64,000 bases of DNA, taken from contig OZ316892.1 in the NCBI GenBank assembly GCA_973895155.1, forward strand, positions 5,922,476 through 5,986,475. Direction: 5' to 3'. Every line of letters starts with the position of its first letter. Within the stretch, counting starts at the first letter, position 1. Of this stretch, positions 1 to 19,115 are shown piece after piece. Position numbers and translations under genes: made by a program. The DNA comes from Marsupella aquatica. Taxonomy: Eukaryota > Plantae > Marchantiophyta. The notes below the pieces were generated by a model. The model saw nothing but the letters and a program-made list of their open reading frames with translations. It was not told the DNA's origin and ran no database searches.

Positions 1-434
1 GTCTTGAACACAAATCCACGAGCCACAATCTGATTGCCGATCCAGACCTCGACTTCATCGCCAGATACAATCGAGTCTCCAAAACTTTCCACCGACGATT
101 TCTCTGGTACAAAACCCGGAACCGTATCCTTTGTAGAACAGGAGGCATCCATTTTCGTTGTCGCTGGAGTTGACTGTGACTTCAAATATGCAAAAGGGGC
201 ATCCCAAATAATGCAAGAGTCGACAGCATCAAACAGGGTCCTGATCGGCTGCAAAGGGTAAGGAATTTCCCGTGATCCCTCATAGCACTTCTCAATGAGA
301 ACTCCTATACGATTACTTCCCAAATCAACATTACGCACTGAGTCACCCGGGTCAACCTTGAGGACCGTCCCGCAAGCAACTTCCACTCCGTCGATTACGA
401 GGCACACCTTGTCCCCTCGAGAGAAACTCCCCAT
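1..434 (-). CDS. Protein with tandem Tnp1/En/Spm-like (CACTA TnpA-associated) domains, running off the window edge
   Basis: Not in the ORF track. Manual translation from ATG 434 is open to base 1: MGSFSRGDKVCLVIDGVEVACGTVLKVDPGDSVRNVDLGSNRIGVLIEKCYEGSREIPYPLQPIRTLFDAVDSCIIW, then a second repeat begins (SIVSGDEVEVWIGNQIVARGFVFK). The pattern VA-G-V...P-P...TL-DA...I-W is typical of this domain. Confidence 0.7.
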   Translation of the reverse strand, partial: MGSFSRGDKVCLVIDGVEVACGTVLKVDPGDSVRNVDLGSNRIGVLIEKCYEGSREIPYPLQPIRTLFDAVDSCIIWDAPFAYLKSQSTPATTKMDASCSTKDTVPGFVPEKSSVESFGDSIVSGDEVEVWIGNQIVARGFVFK

Positions 435-557
435 TTTGAAAACGTGGCCCAAACCGTTGGATGTAGTTACCTCGAGATGATCTCGAGGTAAAGTGACTAC
501 AAAAACCCAAGTGTAGAAGTTTATCCCACAAAATTGTGTGATAGAGAAAATAAGAAG

Positions 558-790
558 CTCTTCTACCTCTAGACGATCTCGAGGTAGAAGAGGGACAAAA
601 ACACCAATACGTCAAAATTCAGAAGTATTTAGCTCGAGACGATCTCGAGGTAGAAGAGGGACCAAAACAACCAATATGTAAAAATTCAGAAGTATTTAGC
701 TCGAGACGATCTCGAGGTAGAAAAGGGACCAAAAACACCAATATGTAAAAATTCAGAAGTATTTAGCTCGAGACGATCTCGAGGTAAAAT
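558..790. repeat. Tandem repeat, 66-67 bp unit x ~3.3, one palindrome per unit
   Basis: Palindromes at 567, 633, 700 and 767 are separated by a near-identical spacer, GTAGAAGAGGGAC...CCAATATGTAAAAATTCAGAAGTATTTAG. Confidence 0.93.
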
Positions 791-1299
791 ATGAATCTCA
801 CTGAATATCGAACTAAGATTCTATACCTCCGACACTCTAAAAACATTTATTATAAGAAGGAAAACCAAATGCACCATTAGAAAGAAGGAGAAAGTGAATA
901 AGTTTGAGGACCAAACTTATGACTCGAGATGATCTCGAGCCAAAAAGGACATTGTATTTGACAAAGAAACTATTAGGAATAATAAGCCACCCAAAATAAG
1001 AACATATAAATGGCTCTAGATGATCTAGAGGAATGATTTGGTGCAATTAAGAAAGTAGGCTCCCAGTTTACTTCCAGACACTGAGAAAAAGCTTCTAAAA
1101 GGCCATCAAATAGAGGGAAAAGGCTTCCAAATGGATTTTGACCGACATTAGTATAAGCTGAAAAGGTTCGGTTTTCTAAAAGATAGGAGCTCAATTATTT
1201 TAGACCTCCTTCGGGGCTTAAAATGACAATTTCTCGAAATATCCTAAACACAAACGTAGACTCCAAAACCCTTGAAAAGAACAACAGAAAGAGATCAGA

Positions 1300-1790
1300 G
1301 CACAAATCTAGAGCCAGAGAGAGGGAGAGGGAGAGGGAGAGAGAGCAGAGAGGCAGAGGAAGAAACGAGCGAGCGGTGAAACGAAATGAGAAGAATGACC
1401 CGTTGAAGAGCAAGGAGAAGCAATATATAAAACCCTGACAGACAAAAAGGGCAATAAGACGGAATGGTTGAACTTGTGTCACGGCTAAGCTTGCGGCAAG
1501 GCTGAAGTACGGATAACAATAATGACAACACGTGTGACCGTAATAATGACTGTACGCACCCAGTAGGTTGCGTGGCAGCCTGCCTGAGCCTGCACGAGCC
1601 CTGGCACGCTTGGCACGGCCAAGGCCGACCCCCGAGGGGCTTATAGTGGCTTCAGGGGTTTTGAATTCCCCATTTTCACATTTGCCTCCTCGCCTCTTTG
1701 CCTCTTCGCCTCCTCGCGTCCCTTGCCTCCTTGCCTCTAGATCGTTTCGCGCTCTTGCCTCGAGATCGTTCTATTAGCCTCGAGATTGCA
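1300..1790. promoter_or_regulatory. Putative bidirectional promoter and 5' leaders of the divergent element genes
   Basis: GA-rich tract at 1310-1360 (pyrimidine-rich on the minus strand), TATATAAAA near 1424, GC-rich core at 1565-1640, and a CT-rich tract at 1683-1760 on the plus strand. Palindrome orientation switches across this region. Confidence 0.45.
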
Positions 1791-1939
1791 GAGGATCGAG
1801 ATTAGGGTTTTTCCTCGAGATTTTATAGGGTCAAGATTTTGTGTTTAGGCTCGAGCTTCGATAGGGTCAAGATTTTCTTTTTAGGCTCGAGATTTTTTTT
1901 AAGTTCTCAGCCCGTAGTACGTTCCTCTCATCACCAGCC

Positions 1940-4900
1940 ATGTCGACTGTTGTAGATTTCTCCAAGGAGGACTTCGCTGAGTACAACCTTGCAACCGTTG
2001 GCGAAGAGCTCCAGACCCATCTAGACTCAGCACATCAGATCCATCGCACCATTAAACGTAATTCTTCATCTTTGTTCTGTTCAGGTTTAACTCGAGATCG
2101 TCTCGAGCTTCAATTGGTCCACTTGTTTTTGGATTCCTTGGATGCCGTTGAGGCTCGAGATCATCTCGAGCCTATTGATGTTTTCTCCAATACTTTGTTT
2201 CAAAAGTTGTGATCTATTAATTGATTTTGCATTTGATGTAAGTGGCATGAGGCTCGAGATCGTCTCGAGCCAATATGCAATTCCTGCATGTGACCTAGTG
2301 AGATTTCTTCAAGTTGGAAACCCTTACCCTTCAAAATTGAACATCATATCCAAAATATCTAAAATTTCCTTCCTTTAGGGACTTCTGTGCCCTCCAACTC
2401 GTTCTGATCATTGACATCCGAACGGGTTTGTGGGTATCAGAAGTTAATGGAGAAAGTGGATTTTTTATCGTTGATTGAATATGATGTTAATTGTTGAATA
2501 TGATATTCAGATCACTCATTTGATATGTTAGGCTCGAGATCGTCTCGAGCCGAATATATCCCACACCGTCTTCCCTTATGTTCATTCGTCTCCCTTGGCC
2601 AATTTCTTCCAGTTGGAAGGACTCCTTGTTGTCTACTTCAATTACTAATATCCTTTTCAATGTGATCCAAGCTTGCCTTTTGGACCAGTTGGAATAAAGC
2701 CTCAACTGATATATATATGGATCGAGATCATCTCGAGCCCTTATCTTTTTCTTTTAAATAGATGGTGGCTTGAGATCATCTCGAGCCTATTGTGTTTCCT
2801 GGGATTCTTGGGTTTGAAATCTCTTTTTAAATTCCACGGATGAAATGGCATTGGAACATGTCTGAATAGTAAACTGAAGATCGAGATCATCTCGAGTCAC
2901 CTATTTGTTTCTTGGTTTTGTAGTACATGTTCCTGACAATTGCTACATTTTTGCTATACCAGGTGCGAAATTGGGATCGCCTAATTTGGTAGTCGAAGAT
3001 GAACATGCAATTGAGATTTCCTGCCCTGGACAGAGTTTATTTGGATTTTGTTGGGCCATTGAGCTTGCTGAAACTGAAGACATGGAAGGAACTATTATTT
3101 GTGTGAAGACGAGGTCTCCATCAGTCGATCCTCTGGTGTGCAGCCTTCTAGGGCCTGTTGTTTCTATTGTGACGAGTAACGGTAAGGACATGGTTTTGAC
3201 GGTGGAGAACCACGAAACAGGGAAGTGGGCTCTAATTAGACTTCACGCCAAAAACTACTCTTGCGATCTTAACATTGAACGTGCAGCCAGGAAACAACTG
3301 AGCGTGATATCAATGGGTTTCTTCCCCGAGGATTTTACTACAAGTAATTTGCTAGAAGATACTCCTATATCTAGAGCGGACATAATTTTTGGATTCCTTT
3401 ATTGTCGGAAGTATGGGCTTGATTGCGATGATGCATTCACGACTCCTTTCACGTGGAAGGTTTTGAGACTAATGTTGGAATCCAAATTGGGGGAGTTTGA
3501 ATCTATATCCCCTGATTTTGTGTTTGGAGCCGGAGAATTTGACCAGGATGCTTGTAAAAAGTGGGTGTTGTCTCATCGGAGACAAACAGGTAAAGTGAAA
3601 TCCGTAGCTGCAGGAGACAAGACCTCCGGTTCGGACAAAAAGGAAGCGAAGGTGTCTCAAAAGAGGAAGAGGGTTGACAAACCCGAAATCAAATCGAAGA
3701 AGGCTCATCCACCAAAAAAGTCCGCATCGCCCAAGGTAGATCTTATTCCGGCATCTTCCTCGGGTGTGAATGCACATACCGATGATGATGGCACTCCAAG
3801 AGATGCTCTGGGAGAAAAGAGCGTTAAGGAAGGAGCCGAAGTTCTTAAGGAGATTGAGGAGTATTACACATTTGGCATGAATGAAACTTTTGACATTCTT
3901 GTCACCAGTATAGATTCGCCATCTGCAGTTTTGGTTTATAGGATGTTCAATAAAGACCATGCCATGGAGGTCGCAAAATCCATGGTTCGAAACCCTGGAA
4001 TGGTACCAGCTGTGGCGGATTTAATTCCGTATTCAAGAGAGAGTTTCCAGTTGCTCCATTATGAGAATACTGCTGAGGATCGAAAGGAGTTTGAGTGGGG
4101 TGTTAAGAATAAGAAGGTGCAGTTCCTTGCAATCAGTGGACAACACTCGGCAAAAGCAGCTGTTTGGATCATAGGTTGGGCTAAGAGCGATGCAAAGTTG
4201 AAGGAGGTTGCGAAGAGTCTGCAATATCGAAAGTCATGAATTCTTTCGGACAGAACTCCAAGGACAATACTTGCTCAACACTCACAAAGGGCAAATGCTG
4301 TTAATAAGACAATGGAGTATGAGTCCTGTTTTCTTGATACTATGGTCCATGCGCGTCGACAGTTTGACGAGTGTGGCCGTCCGGAGAGACCCGTGATTGG
4401 GTCCAATAGACTAACGGATCATCAAAAGTTCCAGGTATATTTGAACTCAAATCCACTTCGAGCTCGAGATTGTCTCGAGCCTCGAGGTCAAGTTTCTGTA
4501 TTTGATTTATCTTCATGTATTCCCCATAAATTTTACCATAGTTCCTTAATTCTACCTCGAGATCGTCTCGAGCCTCAGATTTGTTTTGTACTGTTTGGAC
4601 CAGGATTTTATGGCCCTTGCCAAAATAACGACTGGAAAATCCGAACTGAGGAATATTTTTTGGTTGTTGTTTTCGGATGAGAACCTCTTCCGAACTTGGA
4701 GACAAATGTGCATCGATTGGGTCAAGGGACTTCTTCCGGATGGTCTAGGGGAGTTAGGTTCAAAAATAAACGGGAAAGCCCGGACAACAAAAATGATTAC
4801 GCCGGCATTGTTTAGATGCTTTGAAGGAGACCTGAGTAATGACGACATTCTGAAAGTTTTTACTGCCGTTCAACAACAGAAGGTTTTATTGAAGAAAGAC

Positions 4901-6430
4901 GGTCGTATTCGACAACGGCAGTGGACAGATGCCGAAATTTTTGTCTTGCTGGAGTATTGCTTGCAGATGGCAAACTCGACGGAGGTCTTAGTAATCTTTT
5001 TTGTCCGTCAAGGCCCATTGATAGGCCAGATTTAGAGTGCCTTTGAAAAGATTCGTCGTGAGAAGAAAGTGCACACAAAGCTGGAATACGGGAGCTACTA
5101 CCGTGATCAGGTGCCCAAGGAGGAGGGAGATTTTCTCATTGGAGCTCGGGACTCAATCATCTTTGGGGGAATTTGTTGTGAAGAGGAACCAGACTGGTCC
5201 CAAATTTTCTTTGATGACTTTTATGCGTTCTGGAACTACAGTGAGAAGTGGGACAAAGACTTCACAGTCTTGCCTTTGAAGGCCCCTACTGGGAACAACA
5301 AAGACCAATCAAAGGGGAAAGAGAAGCTCGATGAATCCACTGTTGATGTCGAAGTTTTGGAGAAGATGGCCCCATCTTATGAGATGGTCGGTCGGCGTGG
5401 TGGCTTTGTAAATCCGAGAGCAAAGCCTTTGCGAATGACAAAGCGTCTTGTTGATTATTTCTCGTGCCCAGGTCATACAGTGTTGGATTTCTTCTCTGGA
5501 GGACAGACATTGAAAGCTTGTGTCATTCTTGGTCGGGATTGTTTTGTGTATTCGGACACAGCTCAAGAGATGGAATTCACTGAAGCCTTTGCTCAGCTCC
5601 TTCATGACAACAAGCAAGTTTTATATGTGCCACCCAAGGAGCCGTTGCCATCTGAGGAAATTACTGCTGGTCCCCTCGTTCTTATAGAAGAGGCGGCCGC
5701 AGACATAGCTCCAGTGGAAGCCAGTGTTTATGAGGAAGTATTTGCGGAGAATTTAGAGCATCGCAAAATGGAGGGCCCAAAAATTACAAGCTACATGGAA
5801 GAGGAGGGTGAAATACTCCCTGAATTTGGAAATGATGCTCGAGATGATCTTGATGTTCCAAGTGTTCCTTCATCGGGTGGCCTTGGGGATGCACAACGTG
5901 AACAACAGTCTTCAACCTTGGATGTTGGCTGGGAATCCACCCTGCAGGATGCAGTTAGCCAACCAATTCCAAGCCCTCCTCAACTGGATGAGATTTTCTC
6001 TACTAAGAAAGCTAGTGGCTTCCATACTCCCCCTCAGGACGAGGCAGGTGCATCGTCCTCTCCCTTAGACCAAATGTTTTGCGCTTCAGAGAATAAGCTT
6101 GTTTTCACAGATTCTTCTACTGGAAGCCCCGTAATTCTCCCTTTTGTTAGGAAACCGGGGACTGAAATCGGTAGAACTGGTTACAAATCACTCAAAGCAA
6201 GTGCTACTCATTATGTTTGGACTGATGGACCGTCAAAAGGTCAACAAGTCTCTATAGAGCAGTCTGAGAAGATTATTCGATCTAGAAAGTATAGGATGGA
6301 TAAGTTCAAATTAGTGCCAGTTTGGTCTGAGCCAGCTCTTGTTGAGACCCTTCCCGGAGGGATAAATTTGGACATCCAAAACCAACTAGGAGATAACCTT
6401 CTAGATGAATTTGGGTCTTTCAGCACGTGA
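1940..6430 (+). pseudogene. Spliced ~1150-codon gene: ParB/Srx-like domain fused to a beta-class N4C/N6A DNA-methyltransferase-like region; two in-frame stops
   Basis: Exons 1940-2057, 2924-4434 and 4604-6430 join in phase with GT..AG ends. ParB-like motifs: ILVTSIDSP..YRMFNKDHAMEVAKSM, FLAISGQHSAKAA, LAQHSQRAN. MTase-like: NPRAKPLRMTKRLVDYFSCPGHTVLDFFSGGQTLKACVILGRDCF (compare HPTQKP..RLI...S.PGD.VLDPF.GSGTT..AA..LGR). Stops at 4237-4239 (TGA) and 5033-5035 (TAG) are each followed by the same open frame. Confidence 0.75.
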
Positions 6431-6484
6431 GGTTGAAACCCAAGTTAGTTTGAACTGTCCGGAAATTCAGCCGTCTAAATTATT

Positions 6485-7757
6485 ATGTCTACCTTCACAG
6501 AAATAGGCGGGCCCTTACCAATTGTGGAGTGCGTCGACAATAATCTCCGAAGATGTCCTAAATATTCTTCAACTACTGACCTTCCACAAACAACAGGTAT
6601 GATGTTGACTGTTGTTCATTCACTTGTGATGCTCGAGATCGTCTCGAGCATTCCTTTGTTTTATCTCCCACAATTCTAACGTTGGTGTTCGTACTTTGCA
6701 GGACCCTTGCCTCCACTTCACGGTCCGATCAGACGGAAGCTATTGATTCTTGACCTCAACAAAATGTGTTGGGATTCTGTCAAAACGCCAAGTTCCGGAC
6801 CGCGCCGTAGTGCGACAAGTGTCAATGGTGTCCACTGGGGGAGACGTGGAGGGTTTAACTTTATGTATGTTGAGCGACCCCATCTTCACGAGTTCTTAAT
6901 CGCAGCTTTTTCATTATTTGATGTTGCCATTTGGACTTGTGCAAGGAAACCCAGGACGGATGAAATGATTCATTTGATCTTCAATCAAGAAGAGAGAGCA
7001 ATTCAAGTTTATTCTCACTCAAGAAGATACATTCGATACTGGAATCCAGAGGCCTGACATTACCGATGGGAAGGCAAATATTCTTTTGAAGGATTTGAGG
7101 GTTGTTTGGAAACGTTATGGTGGATTATACGACGAAACTAATACACTCCTTCTTGATGACACTCCAATGAAGGCGTTTGCAAATCCAGAGAATTGTGGGT
7201 TGTTTCCTTCCTCATTTTCGCATCACTCCACGGATGATACATTCTTTCCAGAAATACTGTGGCCTCTGCTCAAGAAATTGTATCATGCCTTTAATCTTCA
7301 GCACTATCTTTTTATCAATCATCCAAAGTGGTCTATGATCAATGTTTTATCGGACAGGGATCAACAGGCTGCCATTTATGCTCTGTTGTCGGAGAGGTGG
7401 GGTAGTATGGTATGGGTTCCCAATGTTATCCATACAGTCTTGGATGTTACAGCGGACGAAATTCCCTGGGATATCAAAAATGAAGTGCAACAATTACCAC
7501 CAATGGAGGAATTGACGGAGGAGGCGATCAACGACCTTGCAAAGACATTAATTGGATATCAGGACACAGGACCCTACAGAGACAATCATCGGGGATTTGT
7601 TTTGGAAGTCTTGAGGTGTAGGGACCTCACAACAAAGTTCTGGAATAGAAAGCCTCTCAATTTCTGTAATCGCGATATGAAATATGACCCGTCAGGGTCT
7701 AGGTTTACTTGCTCAAATGAATTCTGTGGGGTGGAGGAGCATGAGATTTGGGTCTAG
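6485..7757 (+). pseudogene. FCP1/SCP (NIF) HAD-family phosphatase-like gene with a frameshift
   Basis: Exon 6485-6596, then intron 6597-6701 in phase. Motifs KLLILDLN, ERPHLHEFL, FDVAIWT, KDLRVVW, NTLLLDDTPMKAFANPEN. Frameshift in the AG run near 6990; the other frame reads EQFKFILTQEDTFDTG...NILLKD. Cys/His-rich C-terminus. Confidence 0.8.
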
Positions 7758-8489
7758 ATTATCTCGACCCTACACTGAACAGTTACGATGTGAGTTGTAC
7801 ATATACATATTCTTACTCGAAAAAAGAGTGAAGCTATGCGTAGTATCCATTTGAGTCTAGATGTTGTTGATCCTCATTTACTTGTAGATATGTTCTCAGA
7901 AAAAGGTTATTTGGGTCTAGACCCTATACAAAGGGAATAGCTAGAGATATAGATTCAACAACGGGTCAAAATTATGTGGACCCTACATTTGGGTCGAGAT
8001 AATCTTGACATAGATTTTTACATAGTAATTGATATACATTCAACAACCGGTCAAAACCATCTAGAGCCTGCATTGGGGCAGACGTGGTCTCGACCCTGTA
8101 AAAATAGGTTTTTTACTTTTATAATACATCACCGGTTTACCTTCCGTGTTACTTTGTGTAACTTGGTTATCAGGGTCATTTCAATTTATTATATTGTCTT
8201 ATTCTATTTTTTCATTGTTTATATTGTATATAATAAGAACACTTTAATGTCTTTTAATTAATAAGTATTAATAATTGATAACTGAATTATTTAATTAATA
8301 ATTTGGGCATTAGAATTGTAATTTTAGACCTCAAAAAGTGTATATTTGGCCACTAAAATGTATGCTTTTGGGGAACAAGTTATAGAACTTTTGGGGGTAA
8401 AATAAGAAATTTGAAGGTCAACTTCTGGACTAGAGAAATTCCAGTTTTAATGAATAGGGTGATATAGGTGCGCTACTGTCTGTGGTTGA

Positions 8490-8890
8490 AGGAGTGTGCT
8501 ACGTTCCTTCTTGCTGAAATGATAGGAAAGTTTATGTGATTGCTGTGTTGTTGCTCAAACAGGGAGTGCGGGCGGGAGTGTGGCTGTTGCAAGTGCTGCG
8601 TTGCAGCTGCTCAAACAAGAGGTGGGTGCGGGGAGTGTGGCATTGCTACTTGCTGAAACGGAAGCTGCTACCAGGTTGCTGAAATGGAAGCTGCATGCTA
8701 GCTTGCTGAAACGGGAGCGAGAGTGCTGCGTTGCTGCTCTCTCTCAATGCTTGCTCAAACAGGAGTGCCAGGGCTGCTGCCAGCATTGCTATGTACCTTG
8801 CTCAACCGGGAGGTGGGCGCTTCCTGCTTTGATGATCGTGCTTGGTTGCTTGCTATTGTTTCATGCTCGTGCTTGCTTGCTATTGTTTGA
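8490..8890. repeat. Degenerate short-unit repeat (TTGCTCAAACAGGGAGTG / TTGCTGAAACGG)
   Basis: The motif recurs at about 8551, 8608, 8650, 8677, 8703, 8751 and 8798. Confidence 0.6.
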
Positions 8891-8891
8891 A

Positions 8892-9168
8892 GCCCATGCC
8901 AGAAGACACCTCCCACATTCCCTCCGACCTGCAGTGTTTCTTTACCCAACTCAGGTCCGTTACTCAAATCAAATTTAATGATTCCATATCTGCTAGATTG
9001 GCTGTCAACTGCAGCTGAACGAGTAGCTGTGTAGATGTATCGGGTCTTCTTGCCAATATAATTCTTGTTAATCGCGGGATATTCAGTATCGAACTCCCCC
9101 AGCCTTTTGTCCGTAGTCTCTCCAGTCTTCCAGTTGATCTGATACTCATGCAATCGCGGGCAAGCGTC
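8892..9168 (-). pseudogene. Carotenoid cleavage dioxygenase (CCD1-like) gene fragment
   Basis: Translation RLHEYQINWKTGETTDKRLGEFDTEYPAINKNYIGKKTRYIY...GIIKFDLSNGPELGKETLQVGGNVGGVFWHG matches the recalled plant CCD1 segment (LYEMRFNMKTG...DFPRINE.YTGKKQRYVY...GIIKFDL..E.GK..LEVGGN). No other CCD exons are visible. Confidence 0.85.
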
Positions 9169-9169
9169 A

Positions 9170-9796
9170 GTGATCCGAAGCAGATCCGCTGTTGGCGTTC
9201 GGCACGTAACTAAAACGATTTCATCTCCTTCCTGCCATCCATTTGCGACGTGGAAATTGATGGCTGAAGGAAAGTCGGACGGATACTATAGTACTGGCAA
9301 GAGAAAAGTGCAAGAAGCCAATCCTAACTCATGTTTTGTTGATGTTGGCACTGATTGTGCAATTGCATTTGAGTCTGATGATAATCCTGCTCCAAGTACT
9401 AGATCTGGAAAAAGAAAGGGAGTAAAGAATAAGGCTATGGAGGAGGCAATCTCAGCAGGTAAGAAATATTTTTGGTTGGGTCGGATTGTCCAAATGAGAC
9501 AAAAGTATGGTAGTAGGTGGGGCAATTGTCGGTCACCAATTGATTTGATGGATAGGCCAACTCCACTCGCAGGGCAATCAGGTAGCATTTGTGAACTGTT
9601 GTTAAATTGGTATAGTCCTATTGGTAAAAGCAAAAGTGAATTCAGATATGATACCACTGATTTGAAATGGATGGATATTGAAATGGTCATTGCTAGTGTT
9701 AGTTTAACCATGAAAGAAGGGGTTATGGATCGTATCTATGTGTTGGATCTAATAGATGGACTTGCATTGGATCAATATCTTCAAACAATGGTATGA
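9170..9796 (+). CDS. Hypothetical TE-associated protein (beta-rich, weakly BAH-like)
   Basis: 208-aa uninterrupted ORF with natural composition; YFWLGRIVQM...LLLNWY resembles BAH-type strands. Function uncertain. Confidence 0.45.
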   Translation: MIRSRSAVGVRHVTKTISSPSCHPFATWKLMAEGKSDGYYSTGKRKVQEANPNSCFVDVGTDCAIAFESDDNPAPSTRSGKRKGVKNKAMEEAISAGKKYFWLGRIVQMRQKYGSRWGNCRSPIDLMDRPTPLAGQSGSICELLLNWYSPIGKSKSEFRYDTTDLKWMDIEMVIASVSLTMKEGVMDRIYVLDLIDGLALDQYLQTMV

Positions 9797-9882
9797 ATGT
9801 CATGCTATTATTTAGTTTTTGAGAGTCTGTATATATATTTTGTTTTGTTAATATTAGTGGGTGTAGTGGGATAGGATAGGGG

Positions 9883-9942
9883 GTGACGGATTGGCAACTT
9901 GAGATCCTTTCTCAATTAGGGGTTCAATTCCCCTCCGTCACA
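9883..9942 (+). other. tRNA-like fold lacking a D-arm
   Basis: Acceptor stem GTGACGG/CCGTCAC (7 bp), stem TTGAGA/TCTCAA, T-stem AGGGG/CCCCT with loop TTCAATT. Confidence 0.45.
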
Positions 9943-10324
9943 TGTTACATCTCTCAACAGAAGTTTTAAATGGAGTATGGATGGAGCATGGGATTGGTGA
10001 TCAATGGGTGGAATGGATTATTCATGTTGTGACCTTAAAGGCCATCGCACTTATGCACGTAAGGTTTATATTGGGATGACCTTTTAGGTACACTATAAAT
10101 GATGCATTGAAATGATCAAAGTTTAAGGTCGAAAAAGGTGCAAGAACTGTTACAGGGCGTGCCATGTCTGACATACGACTTCACAAGGTACTGACATAGA
10201 CTTATCTTTTCTTTCTAGGCATTTTTTATTGATATGTGACACTTTACTTCACAAATTATAGGGGCAATACAAATTGGATTTTAGACTCTTAGAAGAAAGA
10301 AAGAGGGAGAAAAAAAATTTCAAC

Positions 10325-11074
10325 TTAATAAGTATGGGGGTCTAGGCATGAAAACGTCGCAGGTGATGGGGGGGTCCTCCATATAGTGAGACCCCCGAGG
10401 TTCACATTTACGTTCTGAGAAATTGGTGGTTCCGTTTCGGGGCGCTCATCATTGTCTGAGCCTTCATCAACATACAATTCGCGGTGACCAGGCAGCCCAC
10501 ACGCAACTGTGCTCGGAGGCGAAACATTAGCTCTCTCCCCATAAATTGCATGCATACGCTCGAAATATGGGCAGATCTTCTCGTACTTGTCAGCGAGAGT
10601 AAGGCCCTGTCTCAACTCCGCTTCTATCAATCCAGCCCCTGAGTCTCGCTTCATCGCCAGGGCCTCCTTGTACTTCTTAATGTACCGCTGAAACCTTTTC
10701 CCAAGATTATCTCCTGTGGTCACAAATTTGGGGAAGCCGCTATCATGAAGGTCAATGAGCATTTTTTTGAACACGGTCTTCTTTGGCGGATGTCTACCAA
10801 TGACAGATGGGCGGCTACTGGTGCCATTCAACATAGCAAAATTCTCAGGGACTTCCAACCAATCAACAATGTGCGCGAGCAACAGCTTAATACGATTATC
10901 TCCACCTGAGGCCATTGTTGAAGCTGCTGTGACAATGTTGGCGTCGGAGTCGGGAGGCTGGGAATCACGAATGACAACTTCTGAAGGCGAGTACCGTGGT
11001 CGATGCGGGTAGGGGAAAAGATGATGGATCACCAGAGGAATGTCCTGTGTGAACGCCATGTTTGCCATTGTCAA
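10325..11074 (-). CDS. Myb/SANT-like (trihelix-type) DNA-binding protein, Harbinger ORF2-like
   Basis: IVDWLEVPENF...KKTVFKKM...LGKRFQRYIKKYKEA...SGAGL...KICPYFERMHAIYGER; the CPYF..M..I.G.R ending is characteristic. No adjacent transposase seen. Confidence 0.65.
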   Translation of the reverse strand: MTMANMAFTQDIPLVIHHLFPYPHRPRYSPSEVVIRDSQPPDSDANIVTAASTMASGGDNRIKLLLAHIVDWLEVPENFAMLNGTSSRPSVIGRHPPKKTVFKKMLIDLHDSGFPKFVTTGDNLGKRFQRYIKKYKEALAMKRDSGAGLIEAELRQGLTLADKYEKICPYFERMHAIYGERANVSPPSTVACGLPGHRELYVDEGSDNDERPETEPPISQNVNVNLGGLTIWRTPPSPATFSCLDPHTY

Positions 11075-11977
11075 TCCTCCCTACACAATTCATTTGGCTA
11101 TCAAATTCCGCGAGGGAATTGCACTTTCAAAATTTCTCCACAATCGACGCTCGCATTCATGGACCTTCAAGCACTTTGCGGCGGGTTCAAAAACTGGAGC
11201 GGGGGAAGAGTTTCGCATATTAGATGGTTTTTGATGGTTACTGCCTTAACCATGGTTCGCCCTAAACCCACGTTAAATGCACTGCGGGCCCCTTTCACAT
11301 CTGACTACCCCAGGCAATGCTTGCCCGGGCTCGCCCTCTCGCGGGCCGCCCGAGTGCCTCCGGGGCCGCCCGTGGGCGTGATTTTTTTTTGGTATTTGAG
11401 ACGCCCTAGTACGTTGCGCTTTAACACATATACCATCCCTCTTGCTGACCAAACAGTAAGGAACATGATTGGCCTTTTAGAAATTCAATGCTATTTATAA
11501 GTATTCTACAACTACTAAGGGGCTAAAGATGACTTTGCGAGAGGCCGGGCCTCATTGTTTTTTTCTTCCCTCAGAGATTAAATCTGAAGTGTAATGAGTG
11601 TAAAAGGTTGCAGTTGACTTTACTTGAATTGGGGCCTCATTCAAGTATGGTGTCTACTGCATCGCAAAGCAGTAAGACCAAGGAAATGCTGATATGGAAC
11701 GCTTTCTTTGTCTAGAAGTTTAGATCACCTCCAAAGGTGATTCAAACATTTCCAACCTTTGGCTCCTCATTCAAGGGATCTGCAATTATTGAACTTCAAT
11801 TCGAATATTTTTTGGTCTGTGTCTATGAACACTAGTGCCCCAAGTCTTGATTTTTGATCTGGAGTCTATCTTTATAATAGGAAGTGCTTTGGTGACAAGT
11901 GCCCGAAGTCTTGTAAAGGTAGATGATCTGCATCGGCGGAATCGGAAGTATGCTTCTGACAAGAGGGCGTGCATGCT

Positions 11978-14496
11978 CTATCTGTGAGGGGGAGCAATAA
12001 ACGAGGCCTCGTCGGTGTCGGCCGTCGTTCCAATTTTGGAGGTCCACAAGCTAGACAGCGTGATTCGGATTGGCGAGCCCTTCTTAGTACGAGGCATATA
12101 GCTACGGACGAGGTTCTCGTCTGGATCAACAAGGGACCATTTGAATCTCTTCAGGAAGTGGTGAAGAAATATGAGGATCTCCATCTTGGCGAACTCCATT
12201 CCTGGGCAGATGCGTAAGCCCGCTCCGAACGGAAGGAACACGTATGGGCTTGGCCGACGGGCAGCAGAAAACCTGGACGGCTCATAGCTGTCTGGGTTTT
12301 CGAAGAAAGCAGGTTGTCTGTGCGACCTGTCTTGACTCCAGAATATCTGCATGTGCACGGGCAGCAGCCAAGAAATCAGCACAGCTTAACATTCAATCTC
12401 AGTAGCAATCAGTCCACTAAAACATAAATGCTGTTAGAAATTGGTAACACGTGCCAACCATTCTGCCCCTTTCCTTGGGACAATGTTGGATTAATAATCT
12501 TTCGTGTACAGGAAATCGCATCATCTAGTCCAAAGGTATATGATCATACAGAAAACATTTTGAAACGGGATTTTGACGGTGATAGTTGGGGGTGGAGCTT
12601 CCTGAAGAGCATAGAAAACCGATGCTCTTACCTTGAATTTGCACCAGGAGATTTGGACTACGAGATAACAGTCATTGTTCCAGAGACGACAAAGATAATC
12701 TGTTCTGAGTGGGATGACGATAGAAATAACCAAGCGAATTGTTTGAGGTATTGACTGACGTGTTCATGATCATGACTAGAGCGCCAGATCCTTGAAACTA
12801 GGACTGAATGTAGGCACAGACTGGACAACTCTGAGGCATTGCTTAATACAAATTATTCTCTCCTTGAACTTTGCGTTGACCAACCGAAACTAGGATTCAA
12901 GACACAATGGTCAAGAACGTAAGAGACAGGACAAGAAACGAACCTTCCAGCCCTTGAGAATGGTGTAACCGTTGTATTGGAAATCCCTGGTCGCTTGACG
13001 GTATCCAAAGGGTAAAATTGTCGTCTGTCGCATCGTCTCTTGTACAACCTGCCATGTGTAGATCATGCTCCTCAAATCCTCCATCTTCAACGGCTCCCCT
13101 TCCTTTTTCCTAGCCGCAATAAGCCTATGCTCTGCACATGATATTGAACGACTTTAATCTCTTCTTAGCAGTCCATTCTACTTACCCAGAGCAAACAATT
13201 TACCAGCGTGAGTTCATCATCATGCACTGAGGCCGGATTCCTTCGATGGGCTGGTAGCGCATTGCTCTACGGCACAGTTACATATACGGGAAGAGAAAGT
13301 GCCCGAGGAAAGAAACCTGTACTGTACGCGTACCTTAATTTGTAAACTCACAAGGGGCGTGGTACAATTATTTAAGCTGTGGCATAAATGAGAAGCAAAA
13401 TTGAGTAAAATTGGATGAAATTGGGTATGATCTGCTGGGGATGTGTAGATTCTATACCCTCTATGAGCTTCTCGTAAACTTCCGGATGCTTGGCAATGTC
13501 GCTGATAGTCAAGGTCAGAGTGGATGCGGTCGTGTCATGACCTGCATACAGCATGATCACAAGATTATTTTGTATGAATTCATCGCTCCAAACCTGACCG
13601 CTTTCATCAGGCTGACTGAGCAAGACCGAGAGCAGGTCTTGATCCGGAGCAGCTGTTCCTTCTTTCAGCTCCTGCCTTCTGCTCTCCATCAAGTCAGCAA
13701 CAATTCCGAAGAGAACAACTCTTGCTTTGAGAGCCCGGTGGAATACGAATCCTGGCAGGTTGATTGGCCAGCTCAACAATCCTCTGGACCATTCTTTGAA
13801 TGCACGGCTCAACTTCTCTATTTCTGCACTTCCAGTTTTCACGGTGAGCCCGAAACAGAGTTCCATGATAAATTCGAATGTGAATTTGGTTAATATATTC
13901 TGAGTGCAGATCTCTTCTCCCGTGTCAGCTTTGCCCAACCAGTGTTTGTTCAAATGCCCAAGAGAATTCCGTTCCATCTGTTCCACGTAACGAAGCAAGG
14001 ATTCGGGCCCCAAGAACTTGCCCACAAGGTGATGGCGAACAACTCTGTGCGCTTCCTCGTCTAGTGTCAGGAGAGAATTTACCACTGTTAGATCAGCCAT
14101 TGACTTTGGGTACGCCTTGTGGACCAATTTGTGTTCCGAGCTGAGGAGAAATCTATTGCCTGCAGGCGGGTCCAGAAGGACAACCGTGACCCCCATGATG
14201 GACAGCTTAAAAATGGGGCCATATTTGGCCACTTTCTGGTCGAAAAACGTCTTCATTCCGTTTCTGCTATAACTTCTCATAAACATCAGGGTATCCCACA
14301 TCACATAAGGCAGCCCCACACGGCCTGGAGGAAATACTACTCCACTCGCCTTCCTCTTCTTCTCGCTCTGTGCTTCAAGAATCCAAAATGTACTGCTGAG
14401 AGCCGAGCTGAGAATCAGAACCGTGACGAGCACGATAATGTTTCCCGTCCCTAATCTATCAGAAATGCAGTCCCAAACACTCGTCGACTGATCCAT
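11978..14496 (-). CDS. Cytochrome P450, CYP85 clan (CYP716-like), 3 exons, ~531 aa
   Basis: Exons 14496-13458, 13131-12944 and 12346-11978. N-terminal TM anchor, PPGRVGLP hinge, I-helix AGHDTT, ETMR (ExxR), PSRF, heme motif FGAGLRICPG. Confidence 0.93.
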
Positions 14497-17520: not shown

Positions 17521-19115
17521 GTATCATGAGAGGTCTTGGGCTGGTGTAGGTAGTTCACATCAAAATTTGTTTTAGCTTTTTATTAGTCGTCTTTTTATTA
17601 GTCGTCTTTTAGGGCCAGGTACTTTACTCTCATCTCCGTGGCTTCATCGACAGCTCAGTCTTCCTATTTCTCACGGTGGTTTTGGGCTTACTTCCACTGA
17701 GCGCCTTGCACCTTTGGCCTTCTTGGGCGCGTGGGCGGCCGCCTTCTCATTGTTGGCAGATCGTTTCCTTACTGAGGATCGACCTTTTTTACTTTCATCT
17801 CTCATGGAGGTCGAGGAGGGTTCCCTCCCATTTCAGGTTCATTTGCGCACGGCTCGGTCATCATTACCCGATCCTGTTCGAGCTGCGTTACCTTCATTCC
17901 AGGAGTTTTTATCCTTGGACCCCGTCCGTCTTCAGGCAGACCTTGCTGGGCGTATGCACGCTTTCACCCTCTCCAGCATCCTCACCGAGGCACCTGACAC
18001 GGACCGAGCTCGGATTCTTTCTTCCGGAGGGAAGGGCGCAGGAGGCTGGCTTCAGGCCAATCCAGTCATTCCTCACCTGCGGATGTCTTCAGCGGAGTTT
18101 GCGACAGCCATGCGCCTTCGTATGGGCTTGCCCCACCCACTTCTTGCTGGTTTACCTCCTACTTGCACTTGTGGGAAGCCTTGTGATGCCACAGGTGTCC
18201 ATCTTCTTCGATGCAGTTTGGGCGGCAAAACCATTTTTGTTCACGACGCTGTGAGAGATGCGACTGCTCAGGTTCTCTCTGGCTCTTTGGTCTGCGCGCG
18301 GCGGGAGGTGGTGCTCGAGTTACCTGGTCCTCCATCACAGCGGTTACGGGTGGATCTTACCATGGTCCGTGACGGTCACCGTACTTTGGCAGATGTAGTG
18401 GTGGCAAACCCATTGCGCCAAGACATCATTGGGACAGCGGCAACAACGGCAGGGGCAGCAGCATCACGAGCAGCACAAACGAAGGAGGCCAAATATGCTG
18501 CACGAGCTTCATCTGATAGCTTCCTGCCCCTTGCTCTTGAGATATTTGGGCGTCTTCATCATCAGTTCGACGGGCTTCTTCGCCAAGCTGCTCGGGATGT
18601 TCACGGCCGGATGGGTCCCACCGGGCCCCCGCTATCTGTTTTGACCACGCACTTTCGCCAACGCATTTCAGTCACCTTACAGCGTGCTCAAGCTCGGGCC
18701 GTCTATCGTCGATCTCTGACAGTGGGTGCTAGTGTGACTCCGCAGCGGCTAGCCCCCCTAGAGGACATTCCTGTCCCACTTGCCGATCTAGTTTCGACAC
18801 TTGATGTAGACCACTAGCTTGTAGTCACATTTGCTAGGTATGATGAGGACCTCGGTCCATTTGCGGTAGTTTTAGTTACTCTTTCTTGGTTTTTAGGGGT
18901 TTCCTTTTGCTCACTTCTTTTAGTTCCTCTTTCTTGGTTTTTAGGGTTTCCTTTTGCTCACTTCTTTTGCGTTTGGTTTTGTCCACTTGGGACCTCTCTT
19001 GTTTATTCTTTTGTACTCTATTTGGCCTTTTTCTATATAAAGTATGTGTATATTCTCTTTGGGAAAAGAAGTCTGCACGACATCCCATGTTATCCAAAAC
19101 GGTTCCATCTAAAAG
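17521..19115 (+). mobile_element. 5'-truncated non-LTR retrotransposon with restriction-like endonuclease (CRE-clade-like)
   Basis: Open frame about 17612-18817: RT thumb LPISHGGFGL, AGGWL..P, zinc knuckle CTC..D..G.HLLRC, HDAVRD, RVDL, ADVVVANP, KEAKY, FLPLALEIFG, RQRISVTLQR. T-rich 3' UTR with a ~45-bp duplication. Candidate TSD AGTAGAGTAAA at 17510-17520 and 19116-19126. Confidence 0.85.

Follow-up and report, generated by a model that had tools for sequence, protein, structure and literature searches.

Does a liverwort transposon encode a protein that reads a sequence repeated within its own DNA? The question is raised by one end of a 64-kb stretch of Marsupella aquatica (GCA_973895155.1, contig OZ316892.1, positions 5,922,476 to 5,986,475 of the forward strand; this whole stretch is called the window below), in which a spliced gene fusing a ParB-like domain to a DNA-methyltransferase (MTase)-like domain lies among copies of a 17-bp palindrome. 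Our answer, held tentatively and at somewhat less than even confidence, is that the locus is a decayed transposon copy whose accessory ParB/MTase-fold protein, having neither of the two catalytic motifs, is a likely non-enzymatic, sequence-specific DNA-binding dimer that would recognise the palindrome of its own element and shield the element from silencing. The element, the fusion gene and the palindromes are laid out as follows.

1-10399, no strand: high-copy DNA element exceeding 10.4 kb; its left end lies beyond the window and its right terminus is at 10399
471-1030, minus strand: seven palindromes 5' of the minus-strand ATG; a 67-bp tandem array holds four, and all seven have the spacer TCR when read on the minus strand
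1300-1900, no strand: putative bidirectional promoter and 5' untranslated regions (UTRs), judged from the sequence, with CT-rich tracts and half-sites in a 36-bp repeat at 1774-1894
1940-2057, plus strand: fusion gene exon 1, with GT donor; Calypogeia P0083 matches it weakly at the N-terminus
2058-2923, plus strand: intron 1, with palindromes at 2091, 2154, 2253, 2533, 2721, 2769 and 2880, all with TCR spacer
2924-4434, plus strand: exon 2, with an unnamed N-terminal domain, a basic linker and the ParB/Srx-fold domain (about 3817-4434); stop at 4237-4239
4435-4603, plus strand: intron 2, conserved in position in homologues, with palindromes at 4463 and 4556
4604-6430, plus strand: exon 3, with a helical region, a deletion at 4900/4901, the remaining beta-class MTase motifs to X-I, an acidic linker and a conserved C-terminal domain; stop at 5033-5035 and one degenerate palindrome at 5838
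7741-8100, plus strand: variant sites GGG-TC[G/T]AGA...TCTCGA-CCC at 7752 and 7993, plus half-sites, from the sequence

The three exons, joined at GT..AG borders, give 1152 codons, which upholds the three-exon gene of about 1150 codons drawn in an initial annotation of this DNA, and the exon 2/3 junction agrees with that of the spliced Calypogeia fissa protein P0036. Judged from its sequence, the window copy of the gene is dead: stops fall at codon 478 (TGA) and codon 687 (TAG), and comparison with Calypogeia P0079 reveals the loss of about 144 codons through the in-frame deletion at 4900/4901, which took out MTase motif IV and at which other copies carry on with different sequence in contigs of two runs. 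Among representatives clustered at 50% identity, 70 are homologous to exon 2 with E no higher than 0.001, and many of these homologues stop at the same intron; the Calypogeia homologues share this intron, and those species-named among 29 distinct homologues belong to Calypogeia fissa or Riccia sorocarpa. A conserved C-terminal domain of about 110 amino acids (window 6101-6427) is common to the Calypogeia and JGI homologues and has no Pfam match.

Structure prediction agrees with the ParB-type and beta-class MTase folds that had been proposed for the protein. The AlphaFold2 (AF2) model of the 206-residue ParB-like domain has a predicted local distance difference test score (pLDDT) of 92, and when it was compared with 48,161 chains (VIA-align) the top eight were all of the ParB/Srx family (Z 7.6-4.5), the best alignments having Z 7.6, root-mean-square deviation (rmsd) 4.5 and 126 aligned, and Z 7.5, rmsd 3.2 and 98 aligned. 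Foldseek placed Noc, ParB and PadC at the top ranks, none reaching E 0.001, the domain had no Pfam or NCBIfam match, and no ParB was recovered when PDB sequences were searched with a profile built on the ParB alignment. On its model, the middle of the fusion protein has the ParB/Srx fold. The back half has a beta-class amino-methyltransferase fold: it matches PF01555 (E 2.4e-6) and also M.RsrI, its motifs follow the order IV...X-I, and the Atlas model of the intact Calypogeia P0079 resembles N6_N4 MTases (template-modelling (TM) score 0.58-0.63 over about 200 residues) and also aligns with a mostly viral MTase cluster that is 92% ParB_N (TM 0.62). For exon 3 the AF2 model is too poor to use (mean pLDDT 35), and its Foldseek matches are only indicative. 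In wider scans for homologues, 0 of 33 candidate stretches from metagenomes were confirmed with the ParB alignment and 0 of 16 viral candidates, while the MTase region returned 11 prokaryotic MTases only and no long homologue among 495 candidates. In the ESM Atlas, the clusters closest to window 3817-4434 (homologue P0004 285-510) are a fungal one without a name (0.96) and those of DUF3723 (0.95); as a lead only, DUF3723, a conserved Starship cargo, may be a ParB-fold relative, and the word ParB is absent from the Starship/DUF3723 papers that were searched.

Both signature catalytic motifs are missing from these proteins. At the Box II position, the residue after GQH is serine in 44 of 49 aligned sequences, leucine in 4 and threonine in 1 (the window copy reads GQHS), and the GxxR arginine of canonical ParB CTPases is found in none; according to the available part of one study, substituting the Box II arginine abolishes nucleoside triphosphate binding in ParB-fold proteins (bioRxiv 2025.10.10.680097). 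In place of the MTase motif (D/S)PP(Y/F), the DPPY (motif IV) position reads DFSR in P0079, DFGR in P0076 and P0078 and DLTH in Riccia P0086, and PP-aromatic is absent from all four proteins that cover motif IV and extend past it. Profile alignment (hhalign) places the DFSR of P0079 on the prokaryotic DPPY with a probability of 92%, and the DLTH of P0086 on DFSR with 96%; among the prokaryotic MTase relatives DPPY is kept at 8 of 11 loci, the remaining three open reading frames (ORFs) being truncated or starting downstream. With neither the GxxR arginine nor DPPY in any relative examined, the protein is unlikely to clamp with CTP or to write methyl marks, which tells against the earlier suggestion that it marks its own element and against a parS-like loading with CTP. 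The family protein would then be a double pseudo-enzyme, a condition that appears to reach beyond one dead copy.

The palindrome CTCGAGA-YNR-TCTCGAG, with up to two mismatches, occurs 18 times (12 exact, 4 with one mismatch and 2 with two), every one in 471-6648, against a mean of 0.06 and a maximum of 2 in shuffled sequence. Past 8100 the rest of the window holds no site with up to two mismatches to the 15-bp palindrome core, so the array is indeed confined to one region of the 64 kb, as had been claimed; two outer-pair-swapped, G...C-flanked variants lie at 7752 and 7993. Although 62% of 1-8010 codes, 18 of the 20 sites are outside coding sequence (binomial P 2e-6). The tandem array (567-783) accounts for four sites, and the flanks are mutually unrelated (mean identity 0.30 over 14 sites, the tandem array being counted once). 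Within the sites 33 of 40 CpGs are intact, the surrounding DNA having a CpG observed/expected ratio of about 0.67-0.69. On the plus strand the spacer is YGA in 7/7 sites to the left of the putative divergent promoter, and to its right it is TCR in nine of ten non-coding sites, the remaining one being TTG; read along the transcript, 16 of 17 non-coding sites thus have TCR, whose orientation flips across the promoter. These are not 17 independent events, because site copies may descend from one another: 632-655 and 4550-4573, at two distant sites, agree in 24/24 bases. One palindrome carries a compensatory double change and another a G-U-compatible change. In contigs of diverged copies a site seems to be kept just before exon 2 and before the exon of the phosphatase-like gene described below, a weak indication from unreliable joints with sides of 20-22 bases. 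The exact palindrome is also found in 50 viral stretches, one exact site apiece, none with a fusion-family homologue at E <0.01; these occurrences, the richest of which is a GC-rich phage head region (L017), are taken as chance.

That gene and array sit on a mobile element is borne out by the sequencing contigs. Those matching 1-12000 numbered 4983, 2040, 2045 and 167 in four runs, and within the same run depth rose to 4726 for single element contigs, compared with about 28 for flanking contigs near 11300-11900; depth is not copy number, which we put only roughly at a hundred or more. The right terminus is placed at 10399 because 13 contigs (X1) and 9 (X3) depart there into unlike flanks (agreement 0.43, among the 24 of 387 loose ends listed), and others start at 10400. 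The only other low-agreement end within 1-10399, among the same listed ends, is one of 0.64 at 10351; since there is no similar inner end besides it and one contig joins 4003 to 8375, we treat 1-10399 as one element, which might nevertheless be a nested composite of elements. With the terminus at 10399, the palindromes are internal rather than subterminal, the closest lying about 2.4 kb from the right end, which is made up of

10368-10399, plus strand: GC-rich subterminal hairpin and right terminus

Two known kinds of end were tried here and rejected. A CACTA/EnSpm end (TAGTG, candidate at 10388) does not fit, since the terminus ends CCCCCGAG and TAGTG lies 11 nt inside it. A Helitron 3' end has a hairpin followed by CTRR, with insertion before T; the hairpin is present, but CGAG comes directly after it and the flanks begin with A or G. 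The flank consensus of other element copies begins ATTT and the flank of the window copy GTTC; Sola elements, which have a DDD transposase, terminal inverted repeats and a 4-bp target-site duplication, prefer AWWT targets, which an ATTT flank start would fit. The 10-mer GACCCCCGAG that ends the element (10390-10399) recurs once, at 1627-1636 in the putative promoter, and is found nowhere else in the 64 kb. The insertion target (window 10400-11300) is itself a repeat, of lower copy number, and has on its minus strand an ORF at 10325-11080 without a Pfam match.

Immediately downstream of the fusion gene the element carries a further gene.

6485-7757, plus strand: NIF/FCP1-like phosphatase-fold gene (PF03031, splice model), with exon 6485-6596, intron 6597-6701 and exon 6702-7757

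Its matches to PF03031 (E 1.9e-8 and 1.1e-5) confirm the linked C-terminal-domain (CTD)-phosphatase-like gene proposed at the outset. A palindrome lies in its intron at 6632, a frameshift near 6990 breaks the second exon, and it reads DxN where DxD is the norm for NIF/FCP1-like phosphatases. The Riccia gene model KAL3675584.1 matches the window first in its ParB, then in its MTase and then in its NIF region, the order being identical, so the linkage is old or moved as a block.

We picture the proposed mechanism in the following way. The fusion would descend from a phage-type ParB-N6/N4-MTase protein, and the intact protein would bind the 6-3-6 dyad core TCGAGA-NNN-TCTCGA as a dimer; once bound, it would shield the element from host silencing without catalysis, as VANC does via non-coding motifs. 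The NIF protein possibly acts on RNA polymerase II in anti-silencing, and the window copy, which cannot make the fusion protein, would be served in trans. Several observations weigh against this mechanism. The top Z of the ParB domain (7.6) is below the caution line of 8 of the tool, and no helix-turn-helix or other DNA-recognition domain was identified in the protein, in which a helical region is present and the exon 3 model has a pLDDT of about 35-50. The motif IV comparison comprises only four proteins from three lineages, profile-aligned at hhalign probabilities of 92-96%, and MAFFT did not recover the Riccia register. A symmetric dimer site would not lead one to expect a strand bias in the spacer, and the element has other candidate binders, namely a minus-strand ORF, an ORF at 9143-9796 and the transposase, which would lie outside the window. 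A bolder version, in which liverwort giant transposons use a phage-derived ParB-MTase double pseudo-enzyme to read a transcription-oriented intronic 17-bp site and, with the NIF/CTD-phosphatase-like protein, protect the element as a second independent plant anti-silencing system, seems to us rather doubtful.

Comparable proteins have been described elsewhere. The 21.5-kb DNA transposon Sola1-1_Ec32 of Ectocarpus has an accessory protein of 1104 amino acids with ParB-like and N4C/N6A MTase-like domains, proposed by its authors to bind and modify its own element (PMC12477816). It shares with the window element such a fusion on a giant DNA transposon, a likeness by domain description rather than by compared sequences; it differs in belonging to a brown alga and in its termini (AACCG-CGGTT), the word palindrome does not occur in the main text of that paper, and its available passages contain no NIF gene or statement on catalytic motifs. 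The Plavaka elements of Bostrychia carry the accessory genes PAG2/PAG3, of which the ParB-like PAG3 adjoins inverted-repeat arrays, and self-binding is proposed (bioRxiv 2025.02.11.637652). These too are giant DNA transposons with a ParB-like gene, inverted repeats and a PF01555 methylase gene, but their ParB is fused to a 2-oxoglutarate (2OG) oxygenase, with the methylase separate and SET-fused, and their repeats are tandem and adjacent, whereas the window has one fusion and palindromes that are scattered over introns and show a strand bias. Phage ParB_N-N6_N4_MTase fusions have the same domain order and folds (bioRxiv 2025.10.10.680097, PMC4738411) and are likely the ultimate source of the liverwort gene, which differs in its introns, its extra N- and C-terminal domains and its lack of the GxxR arginine and of DPPY.

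VANC21 of the VANDAL transposons offers a precedent for non-coding self-motifs, which are likewise concentrated in introns and intergenic DNA and partly tandem-spread; VANC is, however, a DUF1985/DUF287 protein with a 9-bp motif and proven binding, whereas the window protein is unrelated, with a 17-bp dyad and predicted binding (PMC5735166). Neither VANC domain had a Pfam match in the window proteins or homologues searched. Marchantia DN4MT1 is also a liverwort protein of the beta-class prokaryote-type amino-MTase fold, but it keeps TSPPY, belongs to an active host gene pair and has no ParB domain in the published passages (bioRxiv 2021.02.12.428880).

Because the Ectocarpus and Bostrychia publications already hold the concept of self-recognition, the initial annotation was too bold in calling this a new system: the architecture and the self-binding idea were in print for algal transposons, so its folds, mobile element, non-coding array and NIF link stand, and the novelty, the DNA marking and the CTP loading lack support. 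The deletion at 4900/4901, the extent of the element to 10399 and the strand bias of the spacer were absent from it. What is likely new is the liverwort lineage, the absence of the two motifs, the link to a phosphatase gene and the dispersed, mostly intronic sites with a direction-flipping spacer. No land-plant description of a ParB-methyltransferase transposon was found in the literature searched, most subscription papers being outside its coverage, and according to the Bostrychia paper no transposon other than VANDAL is known to bind its own sequence and modify it (bioRxiv 2025.02.11.637652). The same role has been proposed for the algal ParB accessory genes, without a test in the published passages, and the liverwort family adds an exact candidate site, relatives that are naturally intact in liverwort genomes already annotated, and the sharp prediction that the protein binds but does not catalyse. 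If correct, this would be the first directly testable case of the hypothesis of ParB self-recognition by a eukaryotic transposon; a bacterial partition/methylase module would have taken on the new role of a reader in plant chromatin, and a sequence-specific anti-silencing tool might follow.

The palindromes could instead be bound by another protein of the element, the TnpA-like minus-strand ORF or the transposase, with the ParB-MTase gene as a passenger or acting elsewhere, which we regard as unlikely. The ORFs concerned are

3-437, minus strand: divergent ORF running off the window, with two similar short domains
9143-9796, plus strand: ORF seemingly 5'-truncated, possibly a transposase end; no Pfam or PHROG match

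By eye only, the first resembles CACTA TnpA/DUF8039; no Pfam family supports this likeness, and the TnpA label given earlier is therefore unconfirmed. Such a binder would also suit the cluster of variant sites at 7741-8100 and the GGGTC motifs of similar kind close to the terminus, but the sites are mostly intronic and keep a distance of 2.4 kb or more from the right end, the terminus is not of the CACTA type, and in available accounts of red algae ParB-like genes beside inverted repeats recur. The second ORF seems 5'-truncated because other copies continue differently before 9283. Upstream of it, in a low-copy part of the element, lies a second motif array (8511-8760) of six TTGCT(C/G)AAA(C/T), all on the plus strand.

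It is improbable that the sites are where an active ParB clamp loads with CTP and begins to spread while the MTase writes N4-methylcytosine (4mC) or N6-methyladenine (6mA) on the element via non-canonical active sites. Both folds have been kept across a deep split among liverworts, the family conserves motif I (DFFSGG), the aspartate of motif IV and ParB R42, G108, Q109, H110 and N160, and bacterial-type 4mC enzymes are, in the available account, in use in Marchantia; yet the GxxR arginine (0/49) and PP-aromatic (absent in 4/4) are gone, as opposed to TSPPY in DN4MT1 and DPPY in the prokaryotic relatives.

Comparably improbable is that the motif acts in RNA, as a hairpin with a 7-bp stem and a UCR loop in the introns and UTRs of the element, read by the pseudo-MTase or by host factors. 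The transcribed-strand TCR with its flip across the divergent promoter and the compensatory and G-U-compatible changes accord with it, as does the inclusion of METTL3/14 among beta-class folds (a low-confidence model), but the hairpins fold alike in sense and antisense with no consistent direction, the bias may stem from one founder copied among introns, as the 24 identical bases suggest, and Rfam had no match to the palindrome region.

The least probable alternative, that the array has no function and arose merely as a self-complementary seed was duplicated locally and spread by gene conversion, gains from the single tandem array that yields four sites and from the 24-base identity of two distant ones, but is opposed by exact cores in mostly unrelated flanks, by the survival of CpGs in CpG-depleted surroundings and, weakly, by the seeming retention of sites beside the same exons in diverged copies.

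Elsewhere in the window, a 413-amino-acid ORF at 17576-18817 has no Pfam match; by eye it resembles the C-terminus of a non-LTR retrotransposon (zinc knuckle, endonuclease). Plant gene fragments are found over 13372-56916, including a P450, a HAD hydrolase, ribosomal L1, a calmodulin-binding domain, CSN8/EIF3K and a peroxidase.

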